From Ruminococcus sp. (lineage in GTDB: Bacteria > Bacillota > Clostridia > Oscillospirales > Acutalibacteraceae): DNA of 64,000 nt. The notes under the pieces were generated by a model. It was not told the origin of the DNA. It ran no database searches and worked only from the letters and a program-made list of their open reading frames with translations. A program made the translations under genes and the position numbers. Where the stretch lies: positions 32,135 through 96,134 of the forward strand of contig JBJEOV010000087.1 in the NCBI GenBank assembly GCA_051880895.1, read 5' to 3'. Of this stretch, positions 17,542 through 62,700 are shown one piece after another. How positions within the stretch are numbered: the stretch's first letter is position 1; each line of letters starts with the position of its first letter.

Positions 17542-17715
17542 GGAAACACTGAATAAATCACGCTGAAAGCTGTTTGCACATCTTGCTTGCATATTTTCCG
17601 CCAGCTTGCCCAAAAAATCTCAAAAACAATGCGTCAGCATTACTGCGGTTTGTTTGTGCAACCTGACCAAAAATCTGACGGCGCAATATGCACAAACGAT
17701 TTAATCAGTGTTTCC
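17542..17715 (+). mobile_element. MITE-like repeat copy 1 (174 bp)
   Basis: GGAAACACTGAATAAATC...GATTTAATCAGTGTTTCC ends; CTAA duplicated on both sides, including the mscL TAA stop. Confidence 0.85.
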
Positions 17716-17743
17716 CTAAAAATAAATATTCATACATAAAAAG

Positions 17744-17769
17744 CTCCCTGCTCAAATCTGAACAGGGAG
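17744..17769. terminator. Bidirectional terminator between mscL and the LCP gene
   Basis: CTCCCTG/CAGGGAG stem flanked by A- and T-runs. Confidence 0.65.
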
Positions 17770-17775
17770 TAATTT

Positions 17776-19236
17776 TTATTCATTATATGGCTTGTAGTAG
17801 GTGTCAAGAATAAGCTTGTAAAACTCATCCTCGTTCACATAAAACTCTGTGTAAACCTTTCCCTGCTTAAGCTCGCCGGGTACAGATACCATTGTCATAT
17901 TCATACCGTTGTGAGTGAGCATATTCTGCGACAGGTAACAGATTTTAGAGGGGTTAAGGTTTGTGCAGGAGTAGGGGGAAGAGGCGTTGAAAAGGCTTAA
18001 CGGAGTGGTTAAATCCTTTTTTGTCTGTGTAAGAACAGTGTTCATAAATGAATTTAAGTAAACCTGTTGTCTTTGCATTCGCTTGCTGTTTGCTTCTATA
18101 CTTTCCATATCTCTTGAACGAACAAAGCTTTCGGCGTCTTTTCCCGTAAGGTGATAGCTTTCGCCCTGTGTGAAGCTGCCTATTGTTTCGGGAGATACCA
18201 CATCAACTCCGCCTACAGCGTCATTGAGAGCGGATATACCCTCAAGGTCAAGCGCAAAGTATGAATTTATCGGTATATTGTAGAAAAGTCTTTGAACGGC
18301 TGTAACAGTGTTTACACAGCTTGATTCCTTGCCGTCGCCGTAAGCGTAGGAAAGACAAATCTGTTCCTTAACGGTTTCTACATAATAACCGCTCGCAGAG
18401 TAAACTGCAACATCTGTCATAGTATCTCTCGATACATTGATAAGCTTTGTTTCACCTGTCGATGTGTCCATTGCAACAAGAATAATAACATCAGCCTGTC
18501 CGTTTTCTCCTTTAATATCGCTTACGCTTTCAAAGCTTTCTTTATCAACACCGATACAGAGAATGCTTGTCATATTTTTGTTGTATTCATAGGTGACTCC
18601 GTTATATACAACAAACTGTCCGCCGTTTTGCACGATAACATTTTCCGGTGCGGAGATTATGTTTGTATTATTCAGCATTTCCTGAGAGCCTCTGTAAATG
18701 AACCACGCAAGCAATCCGCTTACAACAAGCATAAAGGCAAGCAAAGAGCTTATAACGGTAAGTATTATTCTTTGCCATTTTTTAAATCTTCTTTTCTTTT
18801 TCTTTCTGCTTTTGTGCTTTTCTTTAATGGCTTTTTTCTGTTCTTTAGAGCCTTTTGCAGGGTGATTACTTTTTACAAGCTCGTCATATTCCTGAAGATA
18901 TCTTTCTTTGCCTGTACTGCTTTTTTTCTTTTTGTGACTGCTGCCCTTTGCGGATCTTGAGCTTTGAACAAGCGGAGTATCATCATCAAAGTCCGAGTTA
19001 TGATGGTGATGGTGGTGACGACTGCGGTGCAACTGCACAAATTTATAATCGCCAATATCATCATTTATACTTCGTTTAGCATAGGAAACTTTACCTTTTT
19101 CTCCGTTGCTTGCAATATTTTCTTCTGTCTGAGGCGGAAGCTTGCTCGAATAGCTGTAAATATCCTCGTGTTTTTCGGAATTATCTGCGATATTATTCTC
19201 CTGATTACTTCCGCTGTTATTATTTTGTGAGTTCAT
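17776..19236 (-). CDS. LCP (LytR-CpsA-Psr) family protein with long charged, His-rich cytoplasmic N-terminus
   Basis: One TM, then GQADVIIL, NVSRDT, FVRSR, RMQRQQ LCP motifs. Confidence 0.88.
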   Translation of the reverse strand: MNSQNNNSGSNQENNIADNSEKHEDIYSYSSKLPPQTEENIASNGEKGKVSYAKRSINDDIGDYKFVQLHRSRHHHHHHNSDFDDDTPLVQSSRSAKGSSHKKKKSSTGKERYLQEYDELVKSNHPAKGSKEQKKAIKEKHKSRKKKKRRFKKWQRIILTVISSLLAFMLVVSGLLAWFIYRGSQEMLNNTNIISAPENVIVQNGGQFVVYNGVTYEYNKNMTSILCIGVDKESFESVSDIKGENGQADVIILVAMDTSTGETKLINVSRDTMTDVAVYSASGYYVETVKEQICLSYAYGDGKESSCVNTVTAVQRLFYNIPINSYFALDLEGISALNDAVGGVDVVSPETIGSFTQGESYHLTGKDAESFVRSRDMESIEANSKRMQRQQVYLNSFMNTVLTQTKKDLTTPLSLFNASSPYSCTNLNPSKICYLSQNMLTHNGMNMTMVSVPGELKQGKVYTEFYVNEDEFYKLILDTYYKPYNE

Positions 19237-20002
19237 CCTTTATTAACACCCCCTGTAAAAGAAGTCTTCCGTCACCTGAATTCAGGCAGGTGCTGAGCGT
19301 AACAATTCTGTCGTCAGTTGTCAGTTCCGGAATATCTCTTACAACCTTTGTGAATGATCTTGGATTCTGAATGTAATCAAGGTATTCTTCAAATACCTTG
19401 TCTTCGTCAAAATCAAAAGAATTCATAATATGTCGGTCGTCATACGAATAAACCGACGCTATACGGTAGGTAAGCTTGTGCTTAGGACGGTAAATATAAA
19501 AATACTCATGGTCGTCAAAAAAGTCGGTATCGGTAAATTTATATAAATCTGCAAACATACTTCCGTCCGCCATATTGTGACCGTAAAGCACAGTCACCCT
19601 GTCGTGCATATAAATTGAATTGCAGTATTGCGAGTAAATAGAGCCTGCAAAGCTGTAATTACCGTAAATATCGTGGTCAAGGTAAAAATTATCGTTAGTA
19701 TTACTTCTGCATACAGGATAATTTATGTTGGTATCGGGAATATAAAGCCAGGAGTAAATCTCATCGTTCTGCGCCTGCAAGGATTCAAAATCTATAGGAT
19801 TATCCACGAGATTTTCATCAATAGACGGCGAGGTGATTTCCTGAGAAATGCTCGGGGCAACCGAGCTTGCAAGGCTGCTGTACTCGTTGCGGGCTTTCTG
19901 CTGGGAATTCATCTGATACATTACATAAATTATACATATGATAATCAGAATAATTGTAATTACAAGAATCGGTATTAAAACTTTATTTCGATTTTTTTTC
20001 AT
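19220..20002 (-). CDS. srtB: Class B sortase
   Basis: N-terminal TM, INYPV, LYGHNM, VTLSTC, GRLLL. Confidence 0.9.
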   Translation of the reverse strand: MKKNRNKVLIPILVITIILIIICIIYVMYQMNSQQKARNEYSSLASSVAPSISQEITSPSIDENLVDNPIDFESLQAQNDEIYSWLYIPDTNINYPVCRSNTNDNFYLDHDIYGNYSFAGSIYSQYCNSIYMHDRVTVLYGHNMADGSMFADLYKFTDTDFFDDHEYFYIYRPKHKLTYRIASVYSYDDRHIMNSFDFDEDKVFEEYLDYIQNPRSFTKVVRDIPELTTDDRIVTLSTCLNSGDGRLLLQGVLIKDELTK

Positions 20003-20124
20003 AACTGAATGCACTGCTTAATTCTATCAAATATTTGTATTAAAGTCAATATTTAGGAATAAATTACCATATTATGCATTAAAAAACAGCTTTCGGAAAA
20101 ACGAAAGCTGTTTTAAAAGCTGAA

Positions 20125-20607
20125 TTAGTTTGATTTCTTTGACTTAACAATGGTTACGCTGACAGCAACAGCTAAAAGTGCTAAGCCAATCATTACATAC
20201 GGTGTTGCGTTTGAAGGACCTGTCTGCGGTGATTTACCTGAATTATCAGTTGTTACAGACTGTGTCGGTGTTTGACCGTCCTTTGTGTAGTAAGGTGTTA
20301 CCTTAATATCACCTGTGATGATAATATCAACATCCTTATCTGTAAGCGGCTGATCGGTTCTGTAAGGACCTTCAATTACCCAATGGTCAAATGTATAACC
20401 CGGATTTGGCTTTGGAGTAATATGAACATGCTGGTTACCGTTTTCGTCAATATCTGTTGTAAATTCGTAATCACCGTCACCGCCGGGGGTAGGGGTTACA
20501 ACTACCACATAAACATATGTACCTGTAGGACTTGGTGCAGCGAATACCGGAATTGCCGCTGCAAGCATCAGCACAAGAGCCAATGCAAGGGATACAACCT
20601 TCTTCAT
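20125..20607 (-). CDS. Small secreted cell-wall-anchored protein with SPQTG sorting motif
   Basis: Signal peptide; PNPGYTFDHW beta-repeat-like domain; KSPQTG, TM and basic tail; ACAGGAGG RBS. Confidence 0.8.
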   Translation of the reverse strand: MKKVVSLALALVLMLAAAIPVFAAPSPTGTYVYVVVVTPTPGGDGDYEFTTDIDENGNQHVHITPKPNPGYTFDHWVIEGPYRTDQPLTDKDVDIIITGDIKVTPYYTKDGQTPTQSVTTDNSGKSPQTGPSNATPYVMIGLALLAVAVSVTIVKSKKSN

Positions 20608-20796
20608 TATACTAACCTCCTGTTAATAATACAAAATTATCTGCGGAATTGCTCCGTAGCTTTTAGATATTAAGTATTATAGCACAATAATAAAATAAAG
20701 TAAAGACAATTATCTAAAATATTTTTGTTATTTTTGATAAATTATATTTCTTTTTTAAACAAAACATAAATACTTTTAATAAAATAAAAAGACCTA

Positions 20797-20825
20797 TTGC
20801 AATAGTAGGCAAAAAAATGTATAAT
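20797..20825 (+). promoter_or_regulatory. Sigma-A promoter of nadA-mnmA
   Basis: TTGCAA-17-TATAAT; the -35 lies inside the palindrome CTATTGCAATAG. Confidence 0.65.
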
Positions 20826-20860
20826 ATCCTTAAAATGAAAAAATGAAGGGAAATGTATTT

Positions 20861-21778
20861 ATGAATATTTCTGAAATTCAGAATAAAATTCTTGAGTTAA
20901 AAAAAGAAAAGGATGTCTGTATTCTTGCTCACAGCTATCAGGCAAGAGAAATCTGCGAAATTGCCGATTTTACGGGCGACAGCTACAAGCTGAGCGTTGA
21001 CGCAAGCAAGGTTAAGAACAAAAATATTCTGATGTGCGGAGTCCGCTTTATGGCTGAAACCTGCAAAATCCTTTCTCCGGATAAAACAGTTTATCTTGCT
21101 CAGCCGGGAGCAGGCTGTCAGATGGCTGACCAGATGGACAGGGAAATGATTTCTTCGGTAAAAAAAATGTACCCTGATTATGCGGTTGTTGCATACATAA
21201 ATACTACCGCAGAATTAAAAACTATTTGTGATGTTTGTGTTACAAGCTCATCTGCTGTTAAAATTGTAGGCAATATGCCTGAAAAGAATATTCTTTTCAT
21301 TCCCGACTGCAATCTCGGCGATTATGTAAGCCGTCAGCTTCCCGATAAAAATATAAAGCTTTTGCAGGGCGGTTGTCCGATTCACGCCTGCGTAACTGCC
21401 GAAGATGTCAGGAAAGCCAAGGCTCAGTTCCCTAATGCTCAGTTACTTGTGCATCCGGAGTGTCAGCCTTCGGTTGTTGAGCTTGCCGATTATGTAGGTT
21501 CAACCTCGGGAATTATGAATTATGCAAAAAACAGCGATAAAAAGGAATTTATCATCGGCACGGAAATCAGCATAGCTGAGCATCTGCAATATGATTGCCC
21601 CGATAAAAAATTCCATATTTTAACGCAGAAGCTCATCTGTCCGAATATGAAGGCTACTACTCTTATGGATGTGTTCGATTGCCTTAACGGCGAGGGCGGC
21701 GAAGAAATTGTCCTTGATGAGCAGACCATTACAGACGCAAGAAAATGTATTGACGAGATGATAAGACTTGGCGGTTAA
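20861..21778 (+). CDS. nadA: Quinolinate synthase
   Basis: ILAHSYQ, CGVRFMAET, YINT, VHPEC, CPNMK. Confidence 0.93.
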   Translation: MNISEIQNKILELKKEKDVCILAHSYQAREICEIADFTGDSYKLSVDASKVKNKNILMCGVRFMAETCKILSPDKTVYLAQPGAGCQMADQMDREMISSVKKMYPDYAVVAYINTTAELKTICDVCVTSSSAVKIVGNMPEKNILFIPDCNLGDYVSRQLPDKNIKLLQGGCPIHACVTAEDVRKAKAQFPNAQLLVHPECQPSVVELADYVGSTSGIMNYAKNSDKKEFIIGTEISIAEHLQYDCPDKKFHILTQKLICPNMKATTLMDVFDCLNGEGGEEIVLDEQTITDARKCIDEMIRLGG

Positions 21779-21788
21779 GGAGAACGGT

Positions 21789-22862
21789 ATGACCGAAAGG
21801 GCATTAATTGCAATGAGCGGAGGCGTTGACAGCTCTGTGGCGGCTTGCCTGATTAAGGAGCAGGGCTATGACGCTACGGGCATAACGCTCAAGCTTTTTG
21901 ACAACGAGGATATCGGCGAAAAGAAAGAAAAAACCTGCTGTTCGCTTGACGATATTGACGACGCAAGAAATGTGTGCAGAAAAATCGGCATACCTTATTA
22001 TGTATATAATTTTAAGGACAGCTTTAAGGAAAATGTTATAAACCGGTTTATTTCTGCATACGAAAACGGCTGTACGCCCAATCCCTGCATTGACTGCAAC
22101 AGATACATCAAGTTTGAAAAGCTGATGCAGAGGGCAGACGAGCTTGATTTTGACTATGTTGTAACGGGACATTACTCGGTTATAGAGTATGACAGGGCTT
22201 TGCAGAGATATCTGCTGAGAAAATCCCCCGACGCAACAAAGGATCAGAGCTATGTACTGTATTCGCTTACCCAAAGACAGCTTTCAAGAACTCTCCTGCC
22301 GCTTGGCAGGCTTACAAAAAGTCAGGTAAGGGAAATTGCGGAAAAATATAATCTGATAAATGCCAAAAAGCACGACAGCCAGGATATATGCTTTGTGCCT
22401 GACGGCAAATATGCACAGTTTATTGAGCAATATACCGGCAGAAAATACGATTGCGGGGATTTTGTTGATGAAAGCGGCAAGGTTCTCGGTACGCACAAGG
22501 GAATTATAAGATATACAATAGGGCAGAGAAAGGGGCTCGGTCTTGCTTTGCCTCACCCTATGTATGTCAAGGAAAAGGATATTGAAAACAACAGGGTAAT
22601 ACTTTGTGAAAATGACGGACTGTTTTCTAAGGAGCTTTATGCAAAGGATATTAACCTTATTGCATACGAAAAGCTCGACAGTCCTTTGCATATAAAAGCA
22701 AGGGTAAGATATAATCAGCCTGAGCAGGACGCCACTGTTGAACAGCTTTCCGACAACAGACTTCACATTGTATTTGACAAACCGCAGAGAGCAATCTCCA
22801 AAGGACAGGCAGTAGTACTGTATGACGGAGATGTTGTTATAGGTGGAGGAACAATAGAATAA
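21789..22862 (+). CDS. mnmA: tRNA 2-thiouridylase
   Basis: AMSGGVDSS, TPNPCIDCN, KDQSY, DSQDICF, TIGQRKGL; AAGGAG RBS. Confidence 0.95.
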   Translation: MTERALIAMSGGVDSSVAACLIKEQGYDATGITLKLFDNEDIGEKKEKTCCSLDDIDDARNVCRKIGIPYYVYNFKDSFKENVINRFISAYENGCTPNPCIDCNRYIKFEKLMQRADELDFDYVVTGHYSVIEYDRALQRYLLRKSPDATKDQSYVLYSLTQRQLSRTLLPLGRLTKSQVREIAEKYNLINAKKHDSQDICFVPDGKYAQFIEQYTGRKYDCGDFVDESGKVLGTHKGIIRYTIGQRKGLGLALPHPMYVKEKDIENNRVILCENDGLFSKELYAKDINLIAYEKLDSPLHIKARVRYNQPEQDATVEQLSDNRLHIVFDKPQRAISKGQAVVLYDGDVVIGGGTIE

Positions 22863-22897
22863 ATACTCGCTGTTTCCTGAATACTCAGTGTTTCCTA

Positions 22898-22931
22898 AAT
22901 CGGCTTGCCTTTACGGTGAGCCGATTTTTTT
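22898..22931 (+). terminator. Intrinsic terminator after mnmA
   Basis: AATCGGCT/AGCCGATT stem plus T-run. Confidence 0.8.
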
Positions 22932-23091
22932 AGAAAAAATCATCAAAAAGCAACATTTTCAAAGTCTTGATATAATGAGATGTGACAATTTTTAACATAT
23001 TATAAAATAAAGCAATTACAGCAACAAATCAGAATATTTCCGCAAAAGCAGTACACTTGTGTTGTAAAAAAACACAAGGAGGTGCCAAAGT

Positions 23092-23136
23092 ATGTGGGAA
23101 AATTTCTGGGAATGGTGGCATAATTTTTTCGGATGA
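23092..23136 (+). CDS. 14-aa aromatic micropeptide MWENFWEWWHNFFG (not in ORF track)
   Basis: AAGGAGGT RBS 8 nt before ATG; extended -10 TGATATAAT at 22968-22976; highly non-random composition. Confidence 0.6.
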   Translation: MWENFWEWWHNFFG

Positions 23137-23150
23137 TGCTCAAATCAATA

Positions 23151-23179
23151 GTGACTTTGTTCACCCGATATGATATAAT
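23151..23179 (+). promoter_or_regulatory. Promoter of the GHKL sensor gene
   Basis: GTGACT-17-TATAAT with extended TG. Confidence 0.55.
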
Positions 23180-23212
23180 GTTTAATATAAAATAATTCCG
23201 GAGTTAAGCATT

Positions 23213-25101: not shown

Positions 25102-25116
25102 TTCAGGAGGATAATT

Positions 25117-26034: not shown

Positions 26035-26046
26035 GGGAAAAAACCT

Positions 26047-26136: not shown

Positions 26137-26160
26137 TTCAAAATTTTTTATATGTAAGCA

Positions 26161-26200: not shown

Positions 26201-26228
26201 GAAATATTTATTGTTTATTTTTACTGTA

Positions 26229-39983: not shown

Positions 39984-40032
39984 TTTTTGAATATATGTTT
40001 AATTCTTGTGAATGCGTCATATAAATACCTTG

Positions 40033-40206
40033 GGCAACACTGAATAAATCACGCTGAAAGCTGTTTGCATATCTTGCTTGCATATTTTCCGCCAGCTTGC
40101 CCAAAAAATCTCGAAAATAATGCGACAGCATTACTGCGGTTTGTTTGTGCAACCTGACAAAAAATCTGACGGCGCAATATGCACAAACGATTTAATCAGT
40201 GTTCCC
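40033..40206 (+). mobile_element. MITE-like repeat copy 2 (174 bp), flanked by a 34-bp direct duplication
   Basis: Same element with slightly degenerate ends; 39999-40032 matches 40207-40240 with 2 mismatches. Confidence 0.85.
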
Positions 40207-40269
40207 TTAATTCTTGTGAATGCGTCATATAGATACATTGTAATCGACACATAAAACAGGAGATTTGCT

Positions 40270-41975: not shown

Positions 41976-42147
41976 GGAAACACTGATTAAATCGTTTGTG
42001 CATATTGCGCCAGCAGATTTTTTTGTCAGATTGCACAAACAAACCGCAGTAATGCTGACGCATTACGAGGATTTTTTGGGCAAGCTGGCGGAAAATATGC
42101 AAGCAAGATGTGCAAACAACTTTCAGTGTGATTTATTCAGTGTTTCC
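41976..42147 (-). mobile_element. MITE-like repeat copy 3 (172 bp, inverted)
   Basis: Same terminal repeats; TTAA on both sides. Confidence 0.85.
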
Positions 42148-42274: not shown

Positions 42275-42766
42275 GTGTGTGATTTTTTTGAGGAGGCAGA
42301 GGAAGTCGGTGCGGTTAATAGCGATGATTTTCATATCTGCGATGCAATCGGCCACGAAATTAAAGCGGTAAATCATATTATTCACAGAAAAATGCTTGAA
42401 AGTGCGGTAAAAAACGGCGTGGATAAGGTAACCATTATGCACGGCTGGATAATAGCATATCTGTATAATAATCAGGACAAGGATATTTTTCAGAAAAATC
42501 TCGAAAGGGAGTTTTCAATTTCACGCTCATCTGTAACAAATATTCTTCAGTTAATGGAGAAGAAGGGGTATATAAAAAGGGTGTCGGTTGAAAATGACGC
42601 AAGACTCAAAAAAATTGTGCTTACCGAAAAGGGGATAAGCATAAAAAACTCTATGGATCAGGCAATTAAATCTAACGAGCAGGAATTTGACAGTGTTTTT
42701 ACTCCTGAAGAAAAGCAGACCTTTTTGTTTCTGATAAGAAAGCTCAGGGCAGGCATTTCAGGATAA
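42275..42766 (+). CDS. MarR-family transcriptional regulator
   Basis: IFQKNLE, ISRSSVTNILQLMEKKGYI.R, DARLKKIVLT. Confidence 0.9.
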   Translation: MCDFFEEAEEVGAVNSDDFHICDAIGHEIKAVNHIIHRKMLESAVKNGVDKVTIMHGWIIAYLYNNQDKDIFQKNLEREFSISRSSVTNILQLMEKKGYIKRVSVENDARLKKIVLTEKGISIKNSMDQAIKSNEQEFDSVFTPEEKQTFLFLIRKLRAGISG

Positions 42767-42773
42767 TATTACA

Positions 42774-42944
42774 GGAAACACTGAATAAATCACGCTGAAA
42801 GCTGTTTGCACATCTTGCTTGCATATTTTCCGCCAGCTTGCCCAAAAAATCCTCGCAATGCGTCAGCATTACTGCGGTTTATTTGTGCAACCTGACGAAA
42901 AATCTGACTACGCAATATGCACAAACGATTTAATCAGTGTTTCC
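42774..42944 (+). mobile_element. MITE-like repeat copy 4 (171 bp) inside the marR-ABC operon
   Basis: TACA duplicated on both sides. Confidence 0.88.
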
Positions 42945-42964
42945 TACAGTAAAGGAGAAAGAGT

Positions 42965-48556: not shown

Positions 48557-48727
48557 GGAAACACTGAATAAATCATGCTAAAAGCTGTTTGCACATCTTG
48601 CTTGCATATTTTCCGCCAGCTTGCCCAAAAAATCCTCGTAATACGACAGTATTACTGCGGTTTGTTTGTGCAATCTGACAAAAAATCTGCTGGCGCAATA
48701 TGCACAAACGATTTAATCAGTGTTTCA
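48557..48727 (+). mobile_element. MITE-like repeat copy 5 (171 bp)
   Basis: CTAT duplicated on both sides; right end TTTCA variant. Confidence 0.85.
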
Positions 48728-48850: not shown

Positions 48851-48868
48851 TTGTAAATTTTTTTGCAA
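48851..48868 (+). promoter_or_regulatory. Possible Rex operator downstream of the fucO promoter (TTGATT-17-TACAAT)
   Basis: TTGTAAA-TTTT-TTTGCAA versus clostridial Rex consensus TTGTTAA-N4-TTAACAA (3 mismatches). Confidence 0.35.
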
Positions 48869-48880
48869 AGGATGATTGCT

Positions 48881-50026
48881 ATGAATAGATTTGTATTAAA
48901 TGAAACCTCCTACCACGGAGCAGGAGCAATTAACTCAATTCCCGAGGAAATCAAGGGAAGAGGCTTTAAAAAGGCTTTTGTCGCATCTGACCCCGACCTT
49001 GTAAAATTCGGAGTAACTAAAAAGGTGACCGATGTGCTTGACGGTGCAGGTATTGAATACACCCTGTACTCAGACATCAAGCCGAACCCGACAATAGAGA
49101 ATGTTCAGCACGGCGTTGAGGTGTTCAGGGAAAGCGGAGCTGACTGCATTATTGCAATCGGCGGCGGCTCTTCAATGGATACTGCAAAGGCAGTGGGAAT
49201 TATCATCAAAAACCCCGAATTTGCAGATGTCCGTTCACTCGAGGGCGTTGCTCCCACAAAGAACAAGTCAGTGCCGATAATTGCAGTTCCCACCACAGCT
49301 GGTACAGCCGCCGAGGTTACTATCAATTATGTAATCACAGACGCTGAAAAGAACAGAAAAATGGTGTGCGTAGATGTTAACGATATTCCCGTTGTTGCCG
49401 TTGTTGACCCCGATATGATGTCAACTATGCCTAAGGGACTTACAGCCGCTACGGGTATGGACGCTCTTACTCACGCTATTGAGGGTTACATAACAAAGGG
49501 TGCGTGGGCACTTTCCGATATGTTCCACCTGAAAGCCATTGAAATAATTTCACAATCCCTGCGTGGCGCAGTAGATAATACACCCGAGGGCAGAGAGGGA
49601 ATGGCACTCGGTCAGTATGTAGCCGGAATGGGCTTTTCAAATGTCGGACTCGGTATAGTTCACTCAATGGCTCACCCGCTCGGCGCATTGTATGACACAC
49701 CTCACGGTGTAGCGAATGCAATTATTCTGCCGACCGTTATGGAATACAACGCACCCGCAACAGGGGATAAGTATAAATATATCGCCGCCGCAATGGGCGT
49801 TGAGGGAACGGAGAATATGAGCGTTGACGAGTACCGCAAGGCTGCTGTTGACGCAGTAAGAAAGCTCTCGCAGGATGTGGGTATTCCTGCCGACCTCAAG
49901 GAAATCGTAAAGCCCGAGGATATACCGTTCCTCGCTCAGTCAGCCTATGATGACGCCTGCCGTCCCGGCAACCCGAGAGATACCAGCGTAGAGGAAATCA
50001 CAGAGCTTTACAAGAGCCTTATGTGA
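48881..50026 (+). CDS. fucO: Lactaldehyde reductase (Fe-dependent alcohol dehydrogenase)
   Basis: IGGGSSMD, PTTAGTAAE, GMDALTHA, GIVHSMAH, PHGVANA. Confidence 0.88.
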   Translation: MNRFVLNETSYHGAGAINSIPEEIKGRGFKKAFVASDPDLVKFGVTKKVTDVLDGAGIEYTLYSDIKPNPTIENVQHGVEVFRESGADCIIAIGGGSSMDTAKAVGIIIKNPEFADVRSLEGVAPTKNKSVPIIAVPTTAGTAAEVTINYVITDAEKNRKMVCVDVNDIPVVAVVDPDMMSTMPKGLTAATGMDALTHAIEGYITKGAWALSDMFHLKAIEIISQSLRGAVDNTPEGREGMALGQYVAGMGFSNVGLGIVHSMAHPLGALYDTPHGVANAIILPTVMEYNAPATGDKYKYIAAAMGVEGTENMSVDEYRKAAVDAVRKLSQDVGIPADLKEIVKPEDIPFLAQSAYDDACRPGNPRDTSVEEITELYKSLM

Positions 50027-50052: not shown

Positions 50053-50170
50053 GGAAACACTGAATAAATCACTCTGAAATTTGTTTGCACATCTTGCTTG
50101 CATATTTTCCGCCAGCTTGCCCAAAAAATCTGACGGCGCAATCTGCACAAACGATTTATTCAGTGTTTCC
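50053..50170 (+). mobile_element. MITE-like repeat copy 6, internally deleted (118 bp)
   Basis: Segment between two AAAAATC motifs is missing; TTA on both sides. Confidence 0.85.
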
Positions 50171-50444: not shown

Positions 50445-50507
50445 TAGACAACAGAAAGAAATAATAATATAATAAATATTGACTGTAGTACGGATTTAGT
50501 ACGGATT
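50445..50507 (+). promoter_or_regulatory. purF promoter plus tandem 11-bp repeat resembling PurBoxes
   Basis: TAGACA-17-TATAAT; TAGTACGGATT twice at 50486-50507. Confidence 0.5.
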
Positions 50508-50541
50508 GTATTTTGCAGAAAGAATTAAAAAGGAGAAGATT

Positions 50542-51951
50542 ATGGGCGGATATATGGGAGTAGCAGCAAAGGAAGACTGCGTTTTTGATTTGTATTTCGG
50601 TATTGACTATCACTCTCACCTCGGTACAAGAAGAGGCGGTATGGTAGTTTATGACGATGAAAAAGGCTTTGACAGGTCAATTCATAATATTGAAAATGCC
50701 CCTTTCAGAACAAAGTTTGATAAGGATATGCAGAATATGAAGGGCAGACTCGGCATCGGCTGTATTTCCGACTATGAGCCGCAGCCGCTTATGGTGCGTT
50801 CGCATCACGGCACATATGCCATTACAACCGTAAGTAAGATTAACAATACGGACGAGCTTGTCAAAGAGGTTTTTACGGCAGGCAATTCACATTTTCTTGA
50901 AATGAGCGGCGGGGATATTAACCCGACTGAGCTTGTTGCAACATTAATCAATCAAAAGGAAAATCTTGTTGACGGCATTAATTATGCCCTTGAAAAAATA
51001 GACGGCTCGCTCTCGCTTTTGCTTATGAACAAAAACGGCATTTATTGCGCAAGAGATAAGTACGGCAGAACTCCTATTGCCATAGGCAAAAAGGAAGACG
51101 CTTTTTGTGCGGCTTTTGAAAGCTTTTCTTACAAAAACCTCGGCTACAGCAACTACAAGGAGCTTGGTCCAGGCGAAATTGCAGTAATAACAGATAAAAA
51201 CTGCGTCACACTTAAGCAGCCCGGCAAGGATATGAAGATTTGCACCTTCCTCTGGGTGTATTACGGCTATCCCGCAAGCTCATATGAGGGTATGAGCGTT
51301 GAGCAGATGCGTTATCTTTGCGGCGCAAAAATGGCTGAAAGAGATAATGTAAAGCCTGATGTTGTTGCAGGCGTGCCTGACTCGGGTATTGCCCACGCAG
51401 TAGGCTATGCAAATGCCTCGGGAATTCCGTTCTCAAGGCCGTTTATTAAATATACTCCCACATGGCCGAGGTCGTTTATGCCGACAATCCAGAGCCAGCG
51501 CAACCTTATTGCTAAAATGAAGCTGCTTGCCGTTGAGGATTTAATAAGAGATAAAAGCCTGCTTCTGATTGACGATTCAATCGTGCGTGGTACTCAGCTC
51601 AGGGAAACAACAGAGTATCTTTTTGAAAGCGGCGCGAAGGAGGTTCATATAAGACCTGCGTGTCCTCCTCTTGTTTACGGCTGTAAGTATCTTAATTTCT
51701 CACGCTCGTCTTCTGAAATGGACCTTATAACAAGAAGAGTTATCGAAAGACTTGAAAACGGTAATGTTACCGATGAAGTCTTAAAGGAATATACCGATCC
51801 CGATTCGGAAAAGTATGAAAGAATGGTTGACGAGATTTGTAAGGAGCTTAAATTTACATCACTCCGCTTTAACCGTCTTGACGATATGCTTGATTCCTGC
51901 GGTATAGAAAAATGCAGGCTCTGCACCTATTGCTGGAACGGCGAGGAATAA
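50542..51951 (+). CDS. purF: Amidophosphoribosyltransferase, variant lacking the N-terminal catalytic Cys
   Basis: GVPDSG, LIDDSIVRGT, IRPACPP, CTYCW; starts MGGY behind an AAGGAG RBS. Confidence 0.9.
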   Translation: MGGYMGVAAKEDCVFDLYFGIDYHSHLGTRRGGMVVYDDEKGFDRSIHNIENAPFRTKFDKDMQNMKGRLGIGCISDYEPQPLMVRSHHGTYAITTVSKINNTDELVKEVFTAGNSHFLEMSGGDINPTELVATLINQKENLVDGINYALEKIDGSLSLLLMNKNGIYCARDKYGRTPIAIGKKEDAFCAAFESFSYKNLGYSNYKELGPGEIAVITDKNCVTLKQPGKDMKICTFLWVYYGYPASSYEGMSVEQMRYLCGAKMAERDNVKPDVVAGVPDSGIAHAVGYANASGIPFSRPFIKYTPTWPRSFMPTIQSQRNLIAKMKLLAVEDLIRDKSLLLIDDSIVRGTQLRETTEYLFESGAKEVHIRPACPPLVYGCKYLNFSRSSSEMDLITRRVIERLENGNVTDEVLKEYTDPDSEKYERMVDEICKELKFTSLRFNRLDDMLDSCGIEKCRLCTYCWNGEE

Positions 51952-54592: not shown

Positions 54593-54690
54593 TTACATAT
54601 TTTTATAATATTTTAGTGCCTGAGTTTTTCGCTCAGGCACTTTTTGCATACAAAAACAGTCCTCAAATCATAGCTGAGGACTGCTTTTTA

Positions 54691-54727
54691 GGAAACATTT
54701 ATTAAATCGTGATTTATTAGTATTTCC
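54691..54727. repeat. Ends-only relic of the MITE (37 bp)
   Basis: GGAAACATTTATTAAATCG joined to TGATTTATTAGTATTTCC; abuts the PAP2 gene stop codon. Confidence 0.65.
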
Positions 54728-55252
54728 TTAAATTATAAAAAATGAAAACCAGCCGTAAAGCAGGGAAATCAACATTCCGACTATTACATCGCTGATAAAA
54801 TGTACTCCCGAAAGCACCCTTGAAATCATAATAAGCACACTTATTATGAGATAAGCTATCCCGAGAGGAGTGCTGATGTAAAGAAAAGACATTGCAATAA
54901 TAAATGCAGAGGCGGTGTGCCTGCTCGGCATACTTTCACCCTTTTTATCCTTGCCGAATACCGAGGGAATACCGAATTTTTCATACGGCCGCTGTCGGTT
55001 GAAAATTTTTCTGAAAATCGTAATCACGGCAAACACCGTAAGCGGCGAAAGCGTAATTCTTGCAAAGACCTTAGCATCGGAAAAAAGCATAAATACCGTA
55101 AGCACACCGTAGGAAAAAAATACTGTAAACGGCAGAAAATTATAGCAGAATTTTAAAACTGAATTACAAGGCTTATTTCGCTTGAAGAAATTAACCATAT
55201 TTTCGTACATTTCAGCGTTTACGGCAATCACCCTCTTTATACTTCTTTCCAT
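54728..55252 (-). CDS. PAP2-family phosphatase
   Basis: RQRPY, SMPSRH, SRVLSGVHFISD. Confidence 0.85.
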   Translation of the reverse strand: MERSIKRVIAVNAEMYENMVNFFKRNKPCNSVLKFCYNFLPFTVFFSYGVLTVFMLFSDAKVFARITLSPLTVFAVITIFRKIFNRQRPYEKFGIPSVFGKDKKGESMPSRHTASAFIIAMSFLYISTPLGIAYLIISVLIMISRVLSGVHFISDVIVGMLISLLYGWFSFFII

Positions 55253-55268
55253 TATTCTATCACAATAA

Positions 55269-57101: not shown

Positions 57102-57113
57102 AAGAAACCTCCG

Positions 57114-58181: not shown

Positions 58182-58229
58182 AGCAATCACCATTAATATA
58201 TATGTAACACTCTGCATAAAAATAATTAT

Positions 58230-58401
58230 GGAAGCACTGATTAAATCGTTTGTGCATATTGCGCAGTCAGATTTTTTGTCAGGTTGCACAAACAAACCGC
58301 AGTAATGCTGACGCATTACGAGGATTTTTTGGGCAAGCTGGCGGAAAATATGCAAGCAAGATGTGCAAACAGCTTTTAAGCGTGATTTATTCAGTGGTTC
58401 C
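58230..58401 (-). mobile_element. MITE-like repeat copy 7 (172 bp, inverted) between divergent ylbJ and yqfC
   Basis: Degenerate ends; ATTAT duplicated on both sides (5 bp). Confidence 0.85.
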
Positions 58402-58433
58402 ATTATAATGCTTTGTATTGGGAGAGATATATT

Positions 58434-58706
58434 TTGCAGAGGAAACACGATAAGCCGAAAAGTCAGTCGGCAGGCTCAATGGCTCTTGATTTGAACTCAG
58501 CCTTGCCAACGCTTGATATGCTCGGCAACAGAAGAATAACTATAGAAGGCTCAACGGGTGTGCTCAGATATGAAAGCGAAAACATTAAAATAAACACGAG
58601 CAAAATGGTAGTGTCTGTGTGCGGCAGAGGGCTTACCGTAAAGTGTATTTCTGCTTATGATGTTGTAATCGAGGGCTTTATAACGGGAATTGATTTTATT
58701 ACATAA
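58434..58706 (+). CDS. yqfC: YabP/YqfC-family sporulation protein
   Basis: ITIEGSTGVLRY, V.V.G..L, I.G.I..I pattern; directly before yqfD; TTG start behind GGGAG. Confidence 0.7.
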   Translation: MQRKHDKPKSQSAGSMALDLNSALPTLDMLGNRRITIEGSTGVLRYESENIKINTSKMVVSVCGRGLTVKCISAYDVVIEGFITGIDFIT

Positions 58707-58720
58707 AGCGAGGCGTTGAT

Positions 58721-59899
58721 ATGCTGTTAAGGCTTATACGGTGGAGCAAGGGCTATGTTGATTTTTCGGCAAAGGGAAAATTCCCCGAGCGTTTTATAAA
58801 TCTTACCACACGAAACGGAATAAATGTATGGAATTTAAAGCCGACAGAAAACGGTCTGACAGCCTCAATGCAGGTTTACGATTATAAAAATATTCACAAT
58901 ATTGCGCATAAGTCAAGGCTGAAAATGCGGGTAACGGGCAGACACGGACTGCCCTTTTACGCAGAGCGTTACAAGTCGAGAGCAGGACTTGTGATTGGCG
59001 CAGTAATGGGGATAATACTTATTTCCGTTCTCTCAAAATTCATTTGGTATATTGACGCTCCTCCTACAAAGAGCCTCAGCACCTCGCAGATACTTTCGGC
59101 TCTTGAAGACGATAATGTACGGATAGGCTCATACACTGCCGCAATAGATACCGAAAACACGGAGCGGAAAATGATTCTGCAAAATGAACAGATAGGCTGG
59201 ATAAGCCTTAATATTATGGGCAGTACCATAAAGGTAAACATTCAGGAAAAAACGCCTAAGCCAGACACCCCCGACTATAAAACACCCTGCAACATAAAGG
59301 CAAAAAATGACGGCGTAATAACAGACATAAAAACCTCAAAAGGCGAAACCAAGGTGCTCAAGGGCAGCGGAGTGGTAAAGGGCGATCTGCTTGTAAGCGG
59401 TATAGTAGAAACAAAGCAGGAAACAATAGAATATGTACACGCAAGCGCAGAAATTATGGCGGATGTAATATATAAAAAGGAATACACCCTGCCCGAAAGC
59501 TACGATTATTTTTATATAACCGATAACCGTACCGACAGATATATGTGCAGCTTTCTGAATTTTAAATTTCCCTGTTCGCTGAGCTTTTTGTCGTATGACG
59601 ACAGCGTATATGTTTTCGGCAGGGAAAAGCTGCGATTGAACAACACCGATATTCCTGTTGAACTGATTACCGAAAGCGAGGTTGAGGTTAAAAAAAGCGA
59701 AATAACCCTTGACAGACCGACGCTTGAGAAAAAAATCCTTGCTCAGTCTGTGCTGTATGAGGTTTTTGAAAAGCAGGACAGCAGGCTTGTCAGCAGAAAA
59801 ATCAGCACAAAAAGCAACGGCGAAGATTTCAATGCGGAAATAAGCTATATTTTCAACGAAAATATTGCACAAACCGCAGAATTTAGTGTGACAGAATAG
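58721..59899 (+). CDS. yqfD: Sporulation protein YqfD
   Basis: ERFINL, GLPF, IW.I, AK..GVI, V..GDLLVSG. Confidence 0.85.
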   Translation: MLLRLIRWSKGYVDFSAKGKFPERFINLTTRNGINVWNLKPTENGLTASMQVYDYKNIHNIAHKSRLKMRVTGRHGLPFYAERYKSRAGLVIGAVMGIILISVLSKFIWYIDAPPTKSLSTSQILSALEDDNVRIGSYTAAIDTENTERKMILQNEQIGWISLNIMGSTIKVNIQEKTPKPDTPDYKTPCNIKAKNDGVITDIKTSKGETKVLKGSGVVKGDLLVSGIVETKQETIEYVHASAEIMADVIYKKEYTLPESYDYFYITDNRTDRYMCSFLNFKFPCSLSFLSYDDSVYVFGREKLRLNNTDIPVELITESEVEVKKSEITLDRPTLEKKILAQSVLYEVFEKQDSRLVSRKISTKSNGEDFNAEISYIFNENIAQTAEFSVTE

Positions 59900-59947
59900 A
59901 TTAAATATGTTATAATAAACCTATCAGATTATTTTTAAGGTGATATT

Positions 59948-60721
59948 ATGCGGATTTTATGTATAGGCGATGTTGTGGGCAGTATAGGCTGCCGATTTCT
60001 GCGCAGTAAGCTGCCTGCCTTAAAAAAGGTTAAGGGCATTGATTTTGTTATCTGCAACGGCGAAAATTCTGCCGACGGCAACGGAATTACCCCCTCTTCG
60101 GCAGATTATCTTCTCGACAGCGGCGTAAATGTGATTACACTCGGCAATCATTCGTTCAGGCGAAAAGAGGCTTACGAATTTATTGATGAAAATCCGTTTA
60201 TTGTCCGCCCTGCAAATTTTCCTGACGGCACTACCCCCGGAACAGGAATTGTAAATGTTGATACGGGCAGAAAAATTATTACCGTAATGAACATTATGGG
60301 CAATACCTTTATGGATAATAATCTTGACTGCGCCTTTGAGTGTGCACAAAATCTGCTGAAAAAAGCCGAGGGCAATATTATTATTGCCGATTTTCACGCA
60401 GAGGCTACGGGCGAAAAGAGGGCGATGGGATATTTCCTTGACGGCAGAGTATCGGCAATTTTCGGTACGCACACCCATGTGCAGACCTCGGACGCTCAGG
60501 TTCTGCCAAAGGGCAGCGGCTATATTACGGATGTCGGTATGACGGGTACTGTCCACTCTGTGCTCGGCGTGAAAAGCGAAATAATTATCAATAAGTTCAG
60601 AACAAAAATGCCTGCAAGATTTGACCTTGCAGACGGCGACTGTAAAATGGAATGTGTTATTTTTGATATTGATGACAAAACAGGCAAAACCCTCACGGCT
60701 GAGTCGCTGAGAATTGAATAA
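59948..60721 (+). CDS. ymdB: YmdB-family 2',3'-cyclic phosphodiesterase (TIGR00282)
   Basis: IGDVVG, NGENSA, TLGNH, DFHAEATGEK, GTHTHVQT, DVGMTG. Confidence 0.92.
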   Translation: MRILCIGDVVGSIGCRFLRSKLPALKKVKGIDFVICNGENSADGNGITPSSADYLLDSGVNVITLGNHSFRRKEAYEFIDENPFIVRPANFPDGTTPGTGIVNVDTGRKIITVMNIMGNTFMDNNLDCAFECAQNLLKKAEGNIIIADFHAEATGEKRAMGYFLDGRVSAIFGTHTHVQTSDAQVLPKGSGYITDVGMTGTVHSVLGVKSEIIINKFRTKMPARFDLADGDCKMECVIFDIDDKTGKTLTAESLRIE

Positions 60722-60764
60722 GGTTACCAAAATTTTTATTTTGCTATATTTTTGCGATTTTCTC

Positions 60765-60793
60765 TTGCAAAATTACCGTCTGAAATATATAAT
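60765..60793 (+). promoter_or_regulatory. Promoter of the DAK2 gene
   Basis: TTGCAA-17-TATAAT. Confidence 0.65.
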
Positions 60794-60838
60794 AACTATG
60801 TCTATAATTTTAATTGTACGATAAAGGATGTGTTCGCA

Positions 60839-62482
60839 ATGTTTAACGGCGAAATATTAAAGAATGCGATAATTTCCGGAGCTAATAATATAAGCTTGCA
60901 GAAAAATCAGATTAACGATTTAAATATTTTCCCTGTTCCCGACGGTGATACAGGTACAAATATGTCTATGACCATAATGGCAGCCGCAAAGGCTCTTGCA
61001 GATTACGACGGCGACGACGCAGGCGAGGTGGCACAGCTTACAGCGTCTGCAATGCTCAGAGGAGCAAGAGGAAATTCGGGCGTTATTACTTCTCTTATTT
61101 TCCGTGGCTTTGCGCAGGGACTCAAGGGAATGAAAGAGGTAAACGGCAAAAGTCTTGCAGCAGCTCTCGGTATCGGCGTTGACGCAGCCTACAAGGCTGT
61201 AATGAAACCGACAGAGGGTACAATCCTCACGGTAGCAAGAATGGCTTACGAGGAGGGCGTTGAGGCTTCAAGGATTAACTCGGACAGCCTGTATGTATGG
61301 CAGTGCATCTGCAACAAGGCGAACGAGGCTTTAGCCATTACTCCCGAGCTTTTACCTGTTCTTAAAAAAGCAGGCGTTGTTGACGCAGGCGGCAAGGGAC
61401 TCTGCGTGATTTTTGAGGGTATGCTTTCATATTTCAAGGACGGCGTAATGGTTGAATATACCGAGGACAAGGCAGAGCCTACTATGGAAAGCTTTGAGAG
61501 TGCGGCGGCTGAATTTGATGACGATATTGAGTTTACCTACTGCACAGAGTTTATTGTCGGCAGAAATGCAGAAAACGCACCGAATCCGGACGGACTGAGA
61601 GAGTATTTGCAGACAATCGGCGACTGCGTTGTGGTTGTAAATGATGACGAGATTATCAAGGTGCATGTTCACACCGAGCAGCCGGGTAATGCGCTTTCAA
61701 AGGCACTTGAGTTCGGTCAGCTTTTAACCGTAAAGGTTGAAAATATGAAGGAGCAGCATAAGAATGTAAAGTCGTCTGCAAAGCCTAAGAAAGAAACCTT
61801 TGAACCTTGTGAGCCTGTTGAGGACTTTGGCTTTGTAGCAGTTGCGGCGGGCGAGGGACTTAAAAACCTCTTCAGGGATTTGGGATGTGCAAATGTTGTG
61901 TCGGGCGGTCAGAGTATGAACCCCAGCACAGATGATATCTATGCCGCTGTTATGGCTACACCGGCTAAGAATGTTCTGGTGTTCCCGAATAATAAGAATA
62001 TTATCCTTGCTGCCGAGCAGACTGTTCCTATGGTAAAGGACAGAAATGTTGTTATTGTTCCCACAAGAACCATTCCACAGGGTATGACAGCCCTGCTTAA
62101 TTTTGACTCCGAGATTTCACCCGAGAGCAACGCCCAGCTTATGATGGACGCAGCGGCAGGAGTCGGCACAGGTCTTGTTACATTTGCCGCAAGAAACAGC
62201 GAATTCGGCGGCAAGAAAATCAAAGAGGGCGACATTATTGCCCTTGAAAACGGCAGACTTACCATAACGGAGAAAAATCCCGTAAAGGCTGTTGTAAAGC
62301 TTGCAAAGAATATGGTATCCCGTGATACCTCGTTCATCACTCTGATATACGGTAATGAAATCAGCGAGGAAGACGCAAAGACGGCATACGAGGAGCTTTC
62401 GGATAAGTTCGGCTCACGCACTGACATTACTCTTGTTAAGGGTGATCAGCCGGTTTATTACTTTATTCTCAGCGTTGAATAA
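60839..62482 (+). CDS. fakA: DAK2-domain protein YloV / fatty acid kinase FakA
   Basis: LNIFPVPDGDTGTNM, GARGNSGVI, KPTEGTILTV, YCTEF, GGQSMNPST, GDQPVY. Confidence 0.9.
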   Translation: MFNGEILKNAIISGANNISLQKNQINDLNIFPVPDGDTGTNMSMTIMAAAKALADYDGDDAGEVAQLTASAMLRGARGNSGVITSLIFRGFAQGLKGMKEVNGKSLAAALGIGVDAAYKAVMKPTEGTILTVARMAYEEGVEASRINSDSLYVWQCICNKANEALAITPELLPVLKKAGVVDAGGKGLCVIFEGMLSYFKDGVMVEYTEDKAEPTMESFESAAAEFDDDIEFTYCTEFIVGRNAENAPNPDGLREYLQTIGDCVVVVNDDEIIKVHVHTEQPGNALSKALEFGQLLTVKVENMKEQHKNVKSSAKPKKETFEPCEPVEDFGFVAVAAGEGLKNLFRDLGCANVVSGGQSMNPSTDDIYAAVMATPAKNVLVFPNNKNIILAAEQTVPMVKDRNVVIVPTRTIPQGMTALLNFDSEISPESNAQLMMDAAAGVGTGLVTFAARNSEFGGKKIKEGDIIALENGRLTITEKNPVKAVVKLAKNMVSRDTSFITLIYGNEISEEDAKTAYEELSDKFGSRTDITLVKGDQPVYYFILSVE

Positions 62483-62526
62483 TTCTGTAAGCATTTGTTT
62501 TGGCTTGCCCTGTGGCTGAGAGTTAA

Positions 62527-62700
62527 GGAAACACTGAATAAATCACGCTGAACGCTTTTTGCACATCTTGCTTGCATATTTTCCGTCAGTCTGCCCAAAA
62601 AATCTCAAAAACAATGCGTCAGCATTACTGCGGTTTATTTGTGCAACCTGACAAAAAATCTGACTGCGCAATATGCACAAACGATTTAATCAGTGTTTCC
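62527..62700 (+). mobile_element. MITE-like repeat copy 8 (174 bp)
   Basis: TTAA on both sides; intact terminal repeats. Confidence 0.88.

Follow-up and report, generated by a model that had tools for sequence, protein, structure and literature searches.

Copies of the repeat in the window

The window analysed here, a 64-kb stretch of DNA, contains a short self-complementary sequence that recurs between genes, and the question is whether it represents mobile DNA, and if so which enzyme moves it, or a structured RNA encoded at several places. The initial annotation had placed eight MITE-like copies and a relic in the window; all were found, with every coordinate correct. A search of the window with up to three mismatches to the terminus GGAAACACTGAWTAAATC gave 17 matches against 0.20 expected, a number reached in 0 of 100 shuffles.

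The full-length copy at 17542-17715 (174 bp, plus strand) is flanked by a perfect CTAA target duplication, and the TAA with which the upstream ORF 17077-17541 stops lies in the left CTAA. TTAA duplications flank the full-length copies at 41976-42147 (172 bp, minus strand) and 62527-62700 (174 bp, plus strand). The copy at 42774-42944 (full-length, 171 bp, plus strand) has a TACA duplication and was inserted into the 23 bp that separate a MarR-family gene from the first in a pair of ABC-transporter genes, and that at 48557-48727 (full-length, 171 bp, plus strand) has a CTAT duplication and a right terminus mutated at the last base. These five duplications are as previously annotated; the flanks of three further copies are imperfect. 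The full-length copy at 40033-40206 (174 bp, plus strand) has mutated outermost bases (GGC...CCC), with CTTG on the left side only and a 34-bp direct duplication on both sides (39999-40032 and 40207-40240). The full-length copy at 58230-58401 (172 bp, minus strand), located in a divergent intergenic region, has ATTAT on both sides. The copy at 50053-50170 (plus strand, flanks TTTA and TTAG) is an internal-deletion variant of 118 bp, in which the apical ~55 bp are gone, the deletion lying between two AAAAAATCT direct repeats. The relic at 54691-54727 (37 bp, plus strand) consists of the left and right termini joined with almost no core; it is flanked by TTTA and TTAA, and the minus-strand ORF 54728-55252 has its stop codon right beside it.

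Copy number and insertion sites in the genome

The genome is a 1.85-Mb draft in 117 contigs, 97.9% complete. The 18-bp terminus has 126 matches in it, and 49 copies with both termini were found, plus fragments, about 55-65 in all, so that the earlier suggestion of hundreds of copies was too high. The window is about 4-fold richer in copies than the genome (Poisson probability of at least 8 in 64 kb, about 4e-4 to 2e-3). The copies encode no protein and span 116-176 bp; their lengths group at 171-175 bp, apart from four copies of 116-118 bp. These four comprise the variant at 50053 and three at other sites, and one such variant was also found in sister species G012.

Perfect 4-bp direct repeats flank 31 of the 49 copies, compared with a chance rate of 0.48%. 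They vary by site (TTAA 18, CTAA 3 and others 10, the last including TTAG 1 and CTAG 1) and represent 10 different 4-mers; looser targets include TACA, CTAT, ATAA and TTTA. A perfect duplication is absent at the other 18 copies, some of which show one-base decay, and recombination between copies may account for others. Nearly all copies (48/49) are intergenic. In tandem gene contexts 17 copies are co-oriented with the flanking genes and 12 opposed, with no orientation bias.

Empty and occupied sites in other strains

Precise empty alleles of three window sites (42774, 41976 and 40033) were found in conspecific metagenome contigs, the target 4-mer being present once (TACG/TACA, TTAA or ATTG). 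Contigs L033 and L037 carry the element at site 42774; L034, L035, L036, L039, L040 and L041 lack it and show TACG or TACA once. Site 41976 is empty with a single TTAA in conspecific contigs L038 and L040, and empty in all 7 fetched loci that span the region, where the gene spacing is 145 bp versus 321 bp. Site 40033 was found elsewhere in three states: empty, plainly filled with a CTTG duplication, or occupied by a MITE nested inside another MITE. At site 58230 the element is absent from a diverged strain contig (L157), and site 62527 is filled in two further samples, whose contigs (L155 and L156) stop inside the element. Look-ups of the proteins encoded at 48863-50026 and 17077-17541 for more empty sites returned no record, the start codons probably being different, and a look-up through the protein 59948-60721 gave partial information. 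Conspecific strains thus do have the unoccupied, single-target sites that had been proposed as a check; together with the site-specific 4-bp duplications, these bear out the view that the copies arose by independent insertions.

An IS with the same termini

The terminus of the MITE is an 18-bp inverted repeat, GGAAACACTGA(A/T)TAAATC. A parent-type IS was found in sister species G012 at L011:988-2216; it is 1,229 bp long with termini GGAAACACTGATTAAAT(A/C), and encodes, at L011:1090-2079, a 329-aa transposase that matches NF033581 'IS5 family transposase' at 298.3 bits (cut-off 140), with domains PF05598 (DUF772, 77 bits) and PF01609 (DDE_Tnp_1, 100 bits). The initial annotation had pointed to mobilisation by an IS5-subgroup element and to a search for a transposase gene within the same termini, and this IS fits both. 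Its suggestion that IS1182 elements are related is unneeded, because the transposase scores 107 bits against NF033551, below the cut-off of 270 for that model.

In other gut and rumen Clostridia, about 20 related IS copies carry GGAAMCRCTGATTTAATC at their termini and are flanked by 4-bp duplications of TTAA, TTAG or CTAA. Overall, the IS copies are flanked by TTAA, TTAG, CTAA or CTAT; in the two closest full copies (L043 and L044) the flanks are CTAA...TTAG and TTAG...CTAA, that is, inverted and not direct. The MITE and the IS have only 17-20 bp at the termini in common, and the core is unrelated to the interior of the IS. With about 80 related IS loci compared and just these 17-20 terminal bp common, an origin of the MITE as an internal deletion of the IS was ruled out. 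Also considered as parent was a DDE transposase of 454 aa, with 9 copies in the complete genome G002, that begins near a GAAAACACTGATAAAATC string; it was rejected because the search for a matching right end was negative and because it belongs to another type of protein.

As previously annotated, there is no transposase in the window, and a search for PF01609 across the whole draft genome gave no match; an intact cognate transposase is absent from the assembly. An intact IS could have been missed because it is unassembled in the 117-contig draft. The genome does hold a 205-bp relic of the IS (C83:12991-13195), which matches the initial 204 bp of the G012 IS at 89% identity.

Secondary structure and the nature of the element

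The initial annotation had expected the element to be highly structured, and its fold is a single long hairpin with an energy of -52.4 kcal/mol (z = -4.6 versus shuffles). Among 17 variants of the core, 83.6% of cells in the hairpin are paired, against 30-46% with partners slid, and the covariation score is 0.147 versus 0.093 +/- 0.009, a value reached in 0 of 500 shuffles. Compensatory changes were seen in the apical stem (AATGC/GCATT, AAGGC/GCCTT, CATAC/GTATG and CAAGGC/GCCTTG). No promoter-like sites were found inside the copies scanned. As for catalogued families, the whole window had no match in Rfam at gathering thresholds, and around one copy at E <= 10 the only match was a plant microRNA model, whose 16 bits fall far short of its gathering score of 100. 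Literature searches returned no description of the element or of its termini, in agreement with the initial annotation, which did not recognise it as a described element.

The strong fold, the conserved pairing and the almost exclusively intergenic position are what one would expect of structured regulatory RNA or sRNA genes fixed in place. That the repeats are such genes and not mobile DNA is nevertheless extremely improbable: it is refuted by the empty sites in conspecific contigs, which hold a single target and show that presence differs among strains of one species. Moreover, the 4-bp duplications vary by site, the orientation is unbiased, neither promoter-like sites nor an Rfam family were found, and the termini are shared with an IS that encodes a transposase. 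The overall palindromic form and conserved hairpin would equally suit a REPIN/REP-type element or an IS200/IS605-type palindromic element (PATE) moved by a Y1 (HUH) transposase, an explanation we give scarcely any weight. Y1 elements insert without target duplication and lack terminal inverted repeats like those of a DDE IS, whereas here 4-bp duplications accompany most copies (31/49) and the ends match those of a DDE element of the IS5 family. Given the 4-bp duplications, the empty sites and the IS with the same termini, the repeats are very probably a non-autonomous type-II MITE of the IS5 family, carrying the termini of an IS of about 1.23 kb that would move the element in trans.

For such an IS5-family MITE, an IS5-family transposase supplied in trans would bind the 18-bp repeats at both ends and carry the element to a target of 4 bp, TTAA or the broader YTAR, which would become duplicated in the process. 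Nearly all surviving insertions are between genes. A TAA stop codon is often part of the target, and the duplication then restores the codon. Since only a 205-bp stub of the parent IS is present in the genome, the copies here are probably now stranded, barring transposase in unassembled or incoming DNA.

Distribution among species

The MITE was found in 14 of 25 members of the genus, whereas the 16 other genera of the order that were searched lacked it. The ~120-bp core occurs in 90 of the 201 species sampled from the genus (~45%). The best copies in G012, G010 and G017 are 97%, 95% and 93% identical to those of the present genome, while the identity of a purF-like gene is 70% with G012 and 64% with G017; this gene was not detectable in G020, G006 and G015. 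MITE copies are thus far more alike between species than housekeeping genes are, which implies that the family probably moves horizontally between species. Viral contigs were scanned for a phage vector with an exact pattern of the conserved core, and nothing was found.

A second set of termini around the same core

In G020, G006 and G004 the same core is surrounded by different termini, GGCAACACCGCACAATTC... (type B); the GGAAACACTGAWTAAATC terminus set itself has a GTAACC variant. The type-B termini match those of a second IS5-family IS, which is degenerate in G020, and a search of 100 species of the genus for an intact type-B IS found the degenerate G020 copy only. Intact relatives of it were found in metagenomes. 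There, terminus pairs lie 1,000-1,400 bp apart in 63 of 80 loci, and the loci inspected are mostly 1,132-1,144 bp with 4-bp duplications. The two IS5-family transposases that match the two terminus sets are about 40% identical.

Across subfamilies the core is ~80% conserved, versus ~57% for the termini. A MITE that is wholly selfish and drifts neutrally would not be expected to show such an excess in the core. Read on its minus strand, the element has a hairpin of -9.7 to -16 kcal/mol with T5-T6 immediately after it in 12 of 17 variants, among them all those of type B. In types A and B, as in the G004 and G008 variants and one from G003, the run after the hairpin reads ATTTTTTG or TTTTTGGG, and the A/T tracts beside the apex are among the most invariant columns of the alignment. 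The tip of the core thus resembles an intrinsic terminator, a putative function suggested by its sequence.

These features raise the tentative and rather doubtful idea that the ~120-bp core is not carried along passively but is a conserved hairpin and terminator-like module with at least two unrelated terminus sets, switching mobilising enzymes and spreading horizontally among almost half of the species in one gut and rumen genus. As each terminus set matches a different IS5-family transposase, the module would be able to switch mobilising enzymes. A long palindrome would be pre-adapted to such switching, because a change mirrored between its arms makes both transposase-binding sites.

In an extension of the IS5-family MITE explanation, the core of the same element would have a selected function in cis, as a portable hairpin/intrinsic terminator or mRNA-stability module, tolerated or used by the host between genes, to which other termini have been attached so that different IS5 transposases can move it. 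We consider this possible, though on the whole unlikely. The conservation of the core above the termini speaks for it, as do the pairing and covariation above those of the controls, the compensatory variation of the apical stem, the hairpin and T run of the minus strand, and the nearly invariant A/T tracts beside the apex. Against it stand the unbiased orientation to flanking genes and the 116-118-bp variants, which lack the apex but still reached new sites. The symmetry of the arms of a palindrome can also be kept by template-switch repair without selection on RNA, and the compensatory events that are independent are few because there are only few subfamilies. If the core does work as a terminator or stability element, the MITE would clearly exemplify a regulatory module that is mobile and exchanges the enzyme by which it is moved.

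Comparison with known elements

The IS5 group, of which IS5 of E. coli is the type element, generates a 4-bp YTAR target duplication. The parent IS resembles this group in its ~330-aa DUF772/DDE_Tnp_1 transposase, its size of ~1.2 kb, its GGAA ends and its YTAR duplication. In contrast, the MITE of the window has no transposase gene and only ~18 bp in common with the IS.

The density of the MITE in the genome is about 1 per 30 kb, and that of Correia copies is higher. The MITE is similar to Correia/CREE of Neisseria, ERIC, RUP and BOX in size, inverted termini, target duplication and high copy number, and also in its potential for co-transcription, its hairpin RNA and its differences in presence and absence among strains (PMC3184786). 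It differs from them in its termini and in its duplications, those of Correia and RUP being TA (PMC3184786). Their mobilising enzymes belong to other families or are unknown.

The closest parallels are MITEs linked to the IS5 family. The MITEs of Porphyromonas gingivalis with IS5-family termini (BrickBuilt, MITEPgRS/MITE464 and MITE239/700) and the Neisseria ATR, a 'type II MITE' linked to ISNme1, are short, non-coding, multicopy and intergenic and have an interior unrelated to the IS, all as found here (PMC4596501). In both cases the termini equal those of resident IS5-family ISs (PMC4596501). The present element is unrelated to them in sequence and occurs in another host phylum (Bacillota, order Oscillospirales); it has a clean 4-bp TTAA/YTAR duplication and a core formed by a single long hairpin and not by tandem repeats, and its parent IS is absent here except for a stub. 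A dispersed terminator-hairpin repeat of ~105 bp (SPRITE-like) is similar in that the tip of the core appears to be a hairpin followed by a T5-T6 run, but the present MITE is marked off by clear inverted termini, duplicated targets and a parent IS that could be identified.

The repeats represent a new MITE family of a familiar kind and not a new kind of biology. For a large genus of Clostridia from gut and rumen, most of it uncultured, they provide a named mobile element for which boundaries, target, parent IS and polymorphisms are described. Because the sites differ between conspecific strains, the copies can serve as strain markers, and at least one polymorphic insertion lies in an operon, that of the MarR-ABC transporter genes, whose expression it could alter. 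MITE copies also break short-read assemblies; about 11 contig ends in the present genome fall inside them.

Copies of the repeat in the window

Scanning the window for the 18-bp terminus with at most three mismatches revealed 17 sites against 0.20 expected, a number reached by none of 100 shuffles, and these sites pair into the copies at the positions listed in the initial annotation. Seven full-length copies of the MITE, the non-coding repeat bounded by these inverted termini, are 171–174 bp long; the junctions of the copy at 17542-17715 read ctaa-GGAAACACTGAATAAATC...GATTTAATCAGTGTTTCC-ctaa. A 118-bp variant (50053-50170) has lost the stretch between two direct repeats of AAAAAATCT, and in a 37-bp relic (54691-54727) two termini are joined with the core, the MITE interior between them, almost absent. 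Extraction of the copies with their flanks returned the annotated duplications CTAA, TTAA, TACA, CTAT and TTAA; the repeats flanking copies 50053, 58230 and 40033 are imperfect.

Copy number and target sites in the genome

The 1.85-Mb draft genome (117 contigs, 42% G + C, estimated 97.9% complete) gave 77 BLAST matches to the MITE consensus, 45 of them full-length. Pairing of termini found 49 complete MITEs: 44 of 170–176 bp (mainly 171, 172, 174 and 175), one of 163 bp and four of 116–118 bp. About 20 further termini are solo; about 11 of them lie at or near contig ends, which indicates that the MITE breaks the assembly. From these figures the true copy number is about 55–65, and not the hundreds that had been extrapolated from the window, where the density is about 4-fold above that of the genome (Poisson probability 4e-4 to 2e-3).

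A perfect 4-bp direct repeat flanks 31 of the 49 copies (TTAA 18, CTAA 3, ATAA 2, TTTA 2, and CTAG, TATA, TTAG, ATAG, TACA and CTAT once each), while 4-mers at random positions 172 bp apart match by chance in 0.48% of cases. When genes were called crudely from ORFs, 48 of the 49 copies proved intergenic, and the remaining one fell in a doubtful N-terminal extension. About eight copies lie 0–1 bp from a stop codon; thus TAA is part of the target.

Empty sites and insertion polymorphism

An exact-protein look-up with the MarR-family gene (42275-42766) retrieved 10 contigs of the same species from other metagenome samples. At site 42774, two conspecific contigs are filled (TACA-element-TACA), and six read aagg...ataatatTACGgtaaagg or a TACA version of it, a precise empty site with a single 4-mer. 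Site 41976 carries a single TTAA in the contigs where both anchors were found, and with a gene spacing of 145 bp versus 321 bp it is empty in all seven loci that span it. At site 40033, one contig is empty, two have a simple insertion with a CTTG duplication, and the conspecific loci L033 and L042 carry one MITE inside another, the second having entered the first at TTAA and left a 22-bp right-end stub. The intergenic gap orthologous to 40033-40260 is evidently an insertion hot spot. The copies are therefore not all fixed, and the independent transposition events proposed from the differing duplications are borne out by empty alleles with one copy of the 4-mer. The MITE family is mobile.

In the region 39999-40240, the window copy at 40033 is itself flanked by a 34-bp direct duplication. 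Its left junction is that of the simple CTTG insertion of other strains, and its right junction, ...GTTCCC-TTAATTCTTG, looks like that of an element inserted at a TTAA 30 bp upstream; the right-hand 34-bp repeat has two variants (atagatacattg) shared with the empty allele of conspecific locus L038. Recombination within the MITE between two alleles with insertions 30 bp apart is a possible, unproven origin, and an allele with the upstream insertion was not found among the strain contigs compared.

Parent insertion sequence

Transposases matching PF01609 (DDE_Tnp_1) were found in 38 of 100 species searched in the same genus, and none in the whole draft genome. In a sister species (G012), one locus has the MITE termini 1,229 bp apart, ctaa-GGAAACACTGATTAAATA...GATTTAATCAGTGTTTCC-ttag, enclosing a single ORF of 329 aa from its probable ATG start. 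The product contains DUF772 (77 bits) and DDE_Tnp_1 (100 bits) and matches NCBIfam NF033581, 'IS5 family transposase', at 298 bits against a cut-off of 140, so that a search for a transposase gene within the same termini confirmed the IS5-type link that had been suggested. With the IS1182 model, this transposase scored below the cut-off (107 bits against 270). Among prokaryotes, scanned at one genome per species, 197 relatives were detected; the nearest of them come from MAGs labelled Acutalibacteraceae, uncultured Ruminococcus, Oscillospiraceae and Clostridiales and from Oscillibacter valericigenes, and about 20 of the relative loci have termini GGAAMCRCTGATTTAATC about 1.2 kb apart with TTAA, TTAG, CTAA or CTAT direct repeats outside. 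Since the MITE and the ISs with these termini (type A) have only 17–20 terminal bp in common, the MITE is a 'type II' MITE, and an origin as a deletion derivative of the IS was rejected.

The own genome retains a stub (contig C83, 12991-13195) that matches the first 204 bp of the G012 IS at 89% identity. It runs from the left terminus through the leader into the coding region, where it is cut off after 34 codons (94% amino-acid identity). With only this stub, the MITE copies appear to be stranded, unless the IS is missing from the draft. In C83:12991-13300, the stub continues directly into what looks like the C terminus of an ORF resembling a tyrosine recombinase (...LGHKNVSFTLNVYGS...), a pair of truncated mobile-element genes thus adjoining each other. 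The 4-mers flanking the two closest full-length IS copies, L043 (G012; CTAA...TTAG) and L044 (an Acutalibacteraceae MAG; TTAG...CTAA), are inverted, whereas those of nearly all other IS and MITE copies are direct repeats; this may have arisen through an inversion involving two copies, or the true termini may reach 4 bp further.

Second and third terminus types

Matches in three other species (G020, G006 and G004) cover consensus positions 35-153 only, at about 80% identity. Their flanks have a second set of termini (type B), ttaa-GGCAACACCGCACAATTCAAGG...CCTGAATTATGCGGTATTGCC-ttaa, likewise bordered by 4-bp duplications, and a third form, GTAACCACTGA...CAGTGCTTAC, was found in G015, G003 and G022. 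On alignment, types A and B are about 57% identical in the right-hand 21 bp and about 80% in the core. G020 also has a degenerate IS with type-B ends and a TTAA duplication, whose transposase is 40% identical to that of G012 and matches the same IS5 model (183 bits). Human-gut and rumen metagenomes commonly contain relatives of this IS, with about 80% amino-acid identity in the N-terminal 185 aa; GGCAAYACCGCAC... termini lie 1,000–1,400 bp apart in 63 of 80 such loci, and the copies inspected are mostly 1,132–1,144 bp with TTAG, CTAG, CTAA or TTAA duplications. With type-B MITE termini and a matching second IS, one homologous core is thus equipped with ends that fit either of two distinct IS5-family transposases.

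At L031:2278-2375 (G020), half a type-B MITE sits where the middle of the IS transposase gene has been lost. This is the sole type-B IS copy of that genome, a presumed helper disrupted by the non-autonomous MITE that would depend on it.

Comparison with known elements

No Rfam family matches the MITE, and its terminus and core strings were not found in the literature searched, in agreement with the initial view that it is not a described element; the literature on MITEs in Ruminococcus and Clostridia yielded only large-scale censuses without it. The nearest described analogues are the MITEs of Porphyromonas gingivalis, which have the same termini as IS5-family ISPg elements and unrelated interiors, and the type-II MITE ATR of Neisseria (PMC4596501). 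Correia, ERIC, RUP, BOX and the terminator-like SPRITE (PMC3184786) are analogues among abundant intergenic repeats. Both the original observation and its reading as an IS5-linked MITE stand: the repeats are a mobile MITE family, probably mobilised by IS5-type transposases and abundant across one gut and rumen genus. Only one feature goes beyond the ordinary, the reuse of a conserved hairpin core with two transposase-specific terminus sets.

Distribution and probable horizontal transfer

Full-consensus matches were found in 14 of 25 genus members, and 16 other genera of the order gave none. Of 201 species sampled from the genus, 90 were positive for the 122-bp core, the highest count being about 180 candidate hits in one genome. 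Counts range from about 179 (G102), 98 (G020), 79 (G174) and 65 (G085), with 73 in the own genome, to none in about 55% of species, which suggests separate amplification bursts. An exact-pattern scan with the conserved core found no copies on viral contigs.

Copies within the own genome have a mean identity of 93.5%, and the best cross-species identities are 97% (G012), 95% (G010) and 93% (G017). The purF-like gene (50506-51951) is 70% identical in G012 and 64% in G017, and no counterpart could be detected from DNA similarity in G020, G006 and G015. Non-coding multicopy DNA cannot stay 93–97% identical vertically over such depth; recent horizontal transfer within the genus is the economical explanation, and the family is probably spreading by this route.

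Core hairpin and terminator-like apex

The strong structure anticipated from the internal stems was recovered: the consensus folds as one long hairpin (-52.4 kcal/mol, z = -4.6), as do 16 of 17 representative variants in predicted folds. Only G003_1 departs from this, its minimum-energy fold being branched; the divergent G007 variant leaves its outermost termini unpaired. When the fold of one copy was projected on the 17-sequence alignment, termini excluded, 83.6% of cells were paired versus 30–46% with partners slid 1–3 columns. Both-side changes occurred in 29 cells against 16 ± 2.8 in shuffles, and the covariation score of 0.147 (0.093 ± 0.009 shuffled) was reached by 0 of 500 shuffles. The apical stem is AATGC/GCATT, AAGGC/GCCTT, CATAC/GTATG or CAAGGC/GCCTTG by subfamily. 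On the minus strand of most variants, ATTTTTTG or TTTTTGGG comes immediately after the apical hairpin (-9.7 to -16 kcal/mol), an arrangement resembling the anatomy of an intrinsic terminator; the plus-strand tail, TTTATTTG, is weaker.

A putative selected role of the core as a terminator would fit this minus-strand arrangement, the covariation beyond shuffles and the retention of pairing where the apical stem differs between subfamilies. We nevertheless consider it doubtful, because MITE orientation relative to flanking co-directional genes is unbiased (17 to 12), apex-less 116–118-bp variants have spread to four sites in the own genome and one in G012, and independent compensatory events in the hairpin are few; moreover, the symmetry of DNA palindromes can be kept through templated repair.

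In the region 42767-42964, the copy at 42774 occupies the 23-bp gap that separates the MarR-family regulator gene from the first of a pair of ABC-transporter genes, just upstream of the ribosome-binding site of the transporter. Since some strains carry this insertion and others the empty site, polar effects on the operon could be compared between natural alleles.
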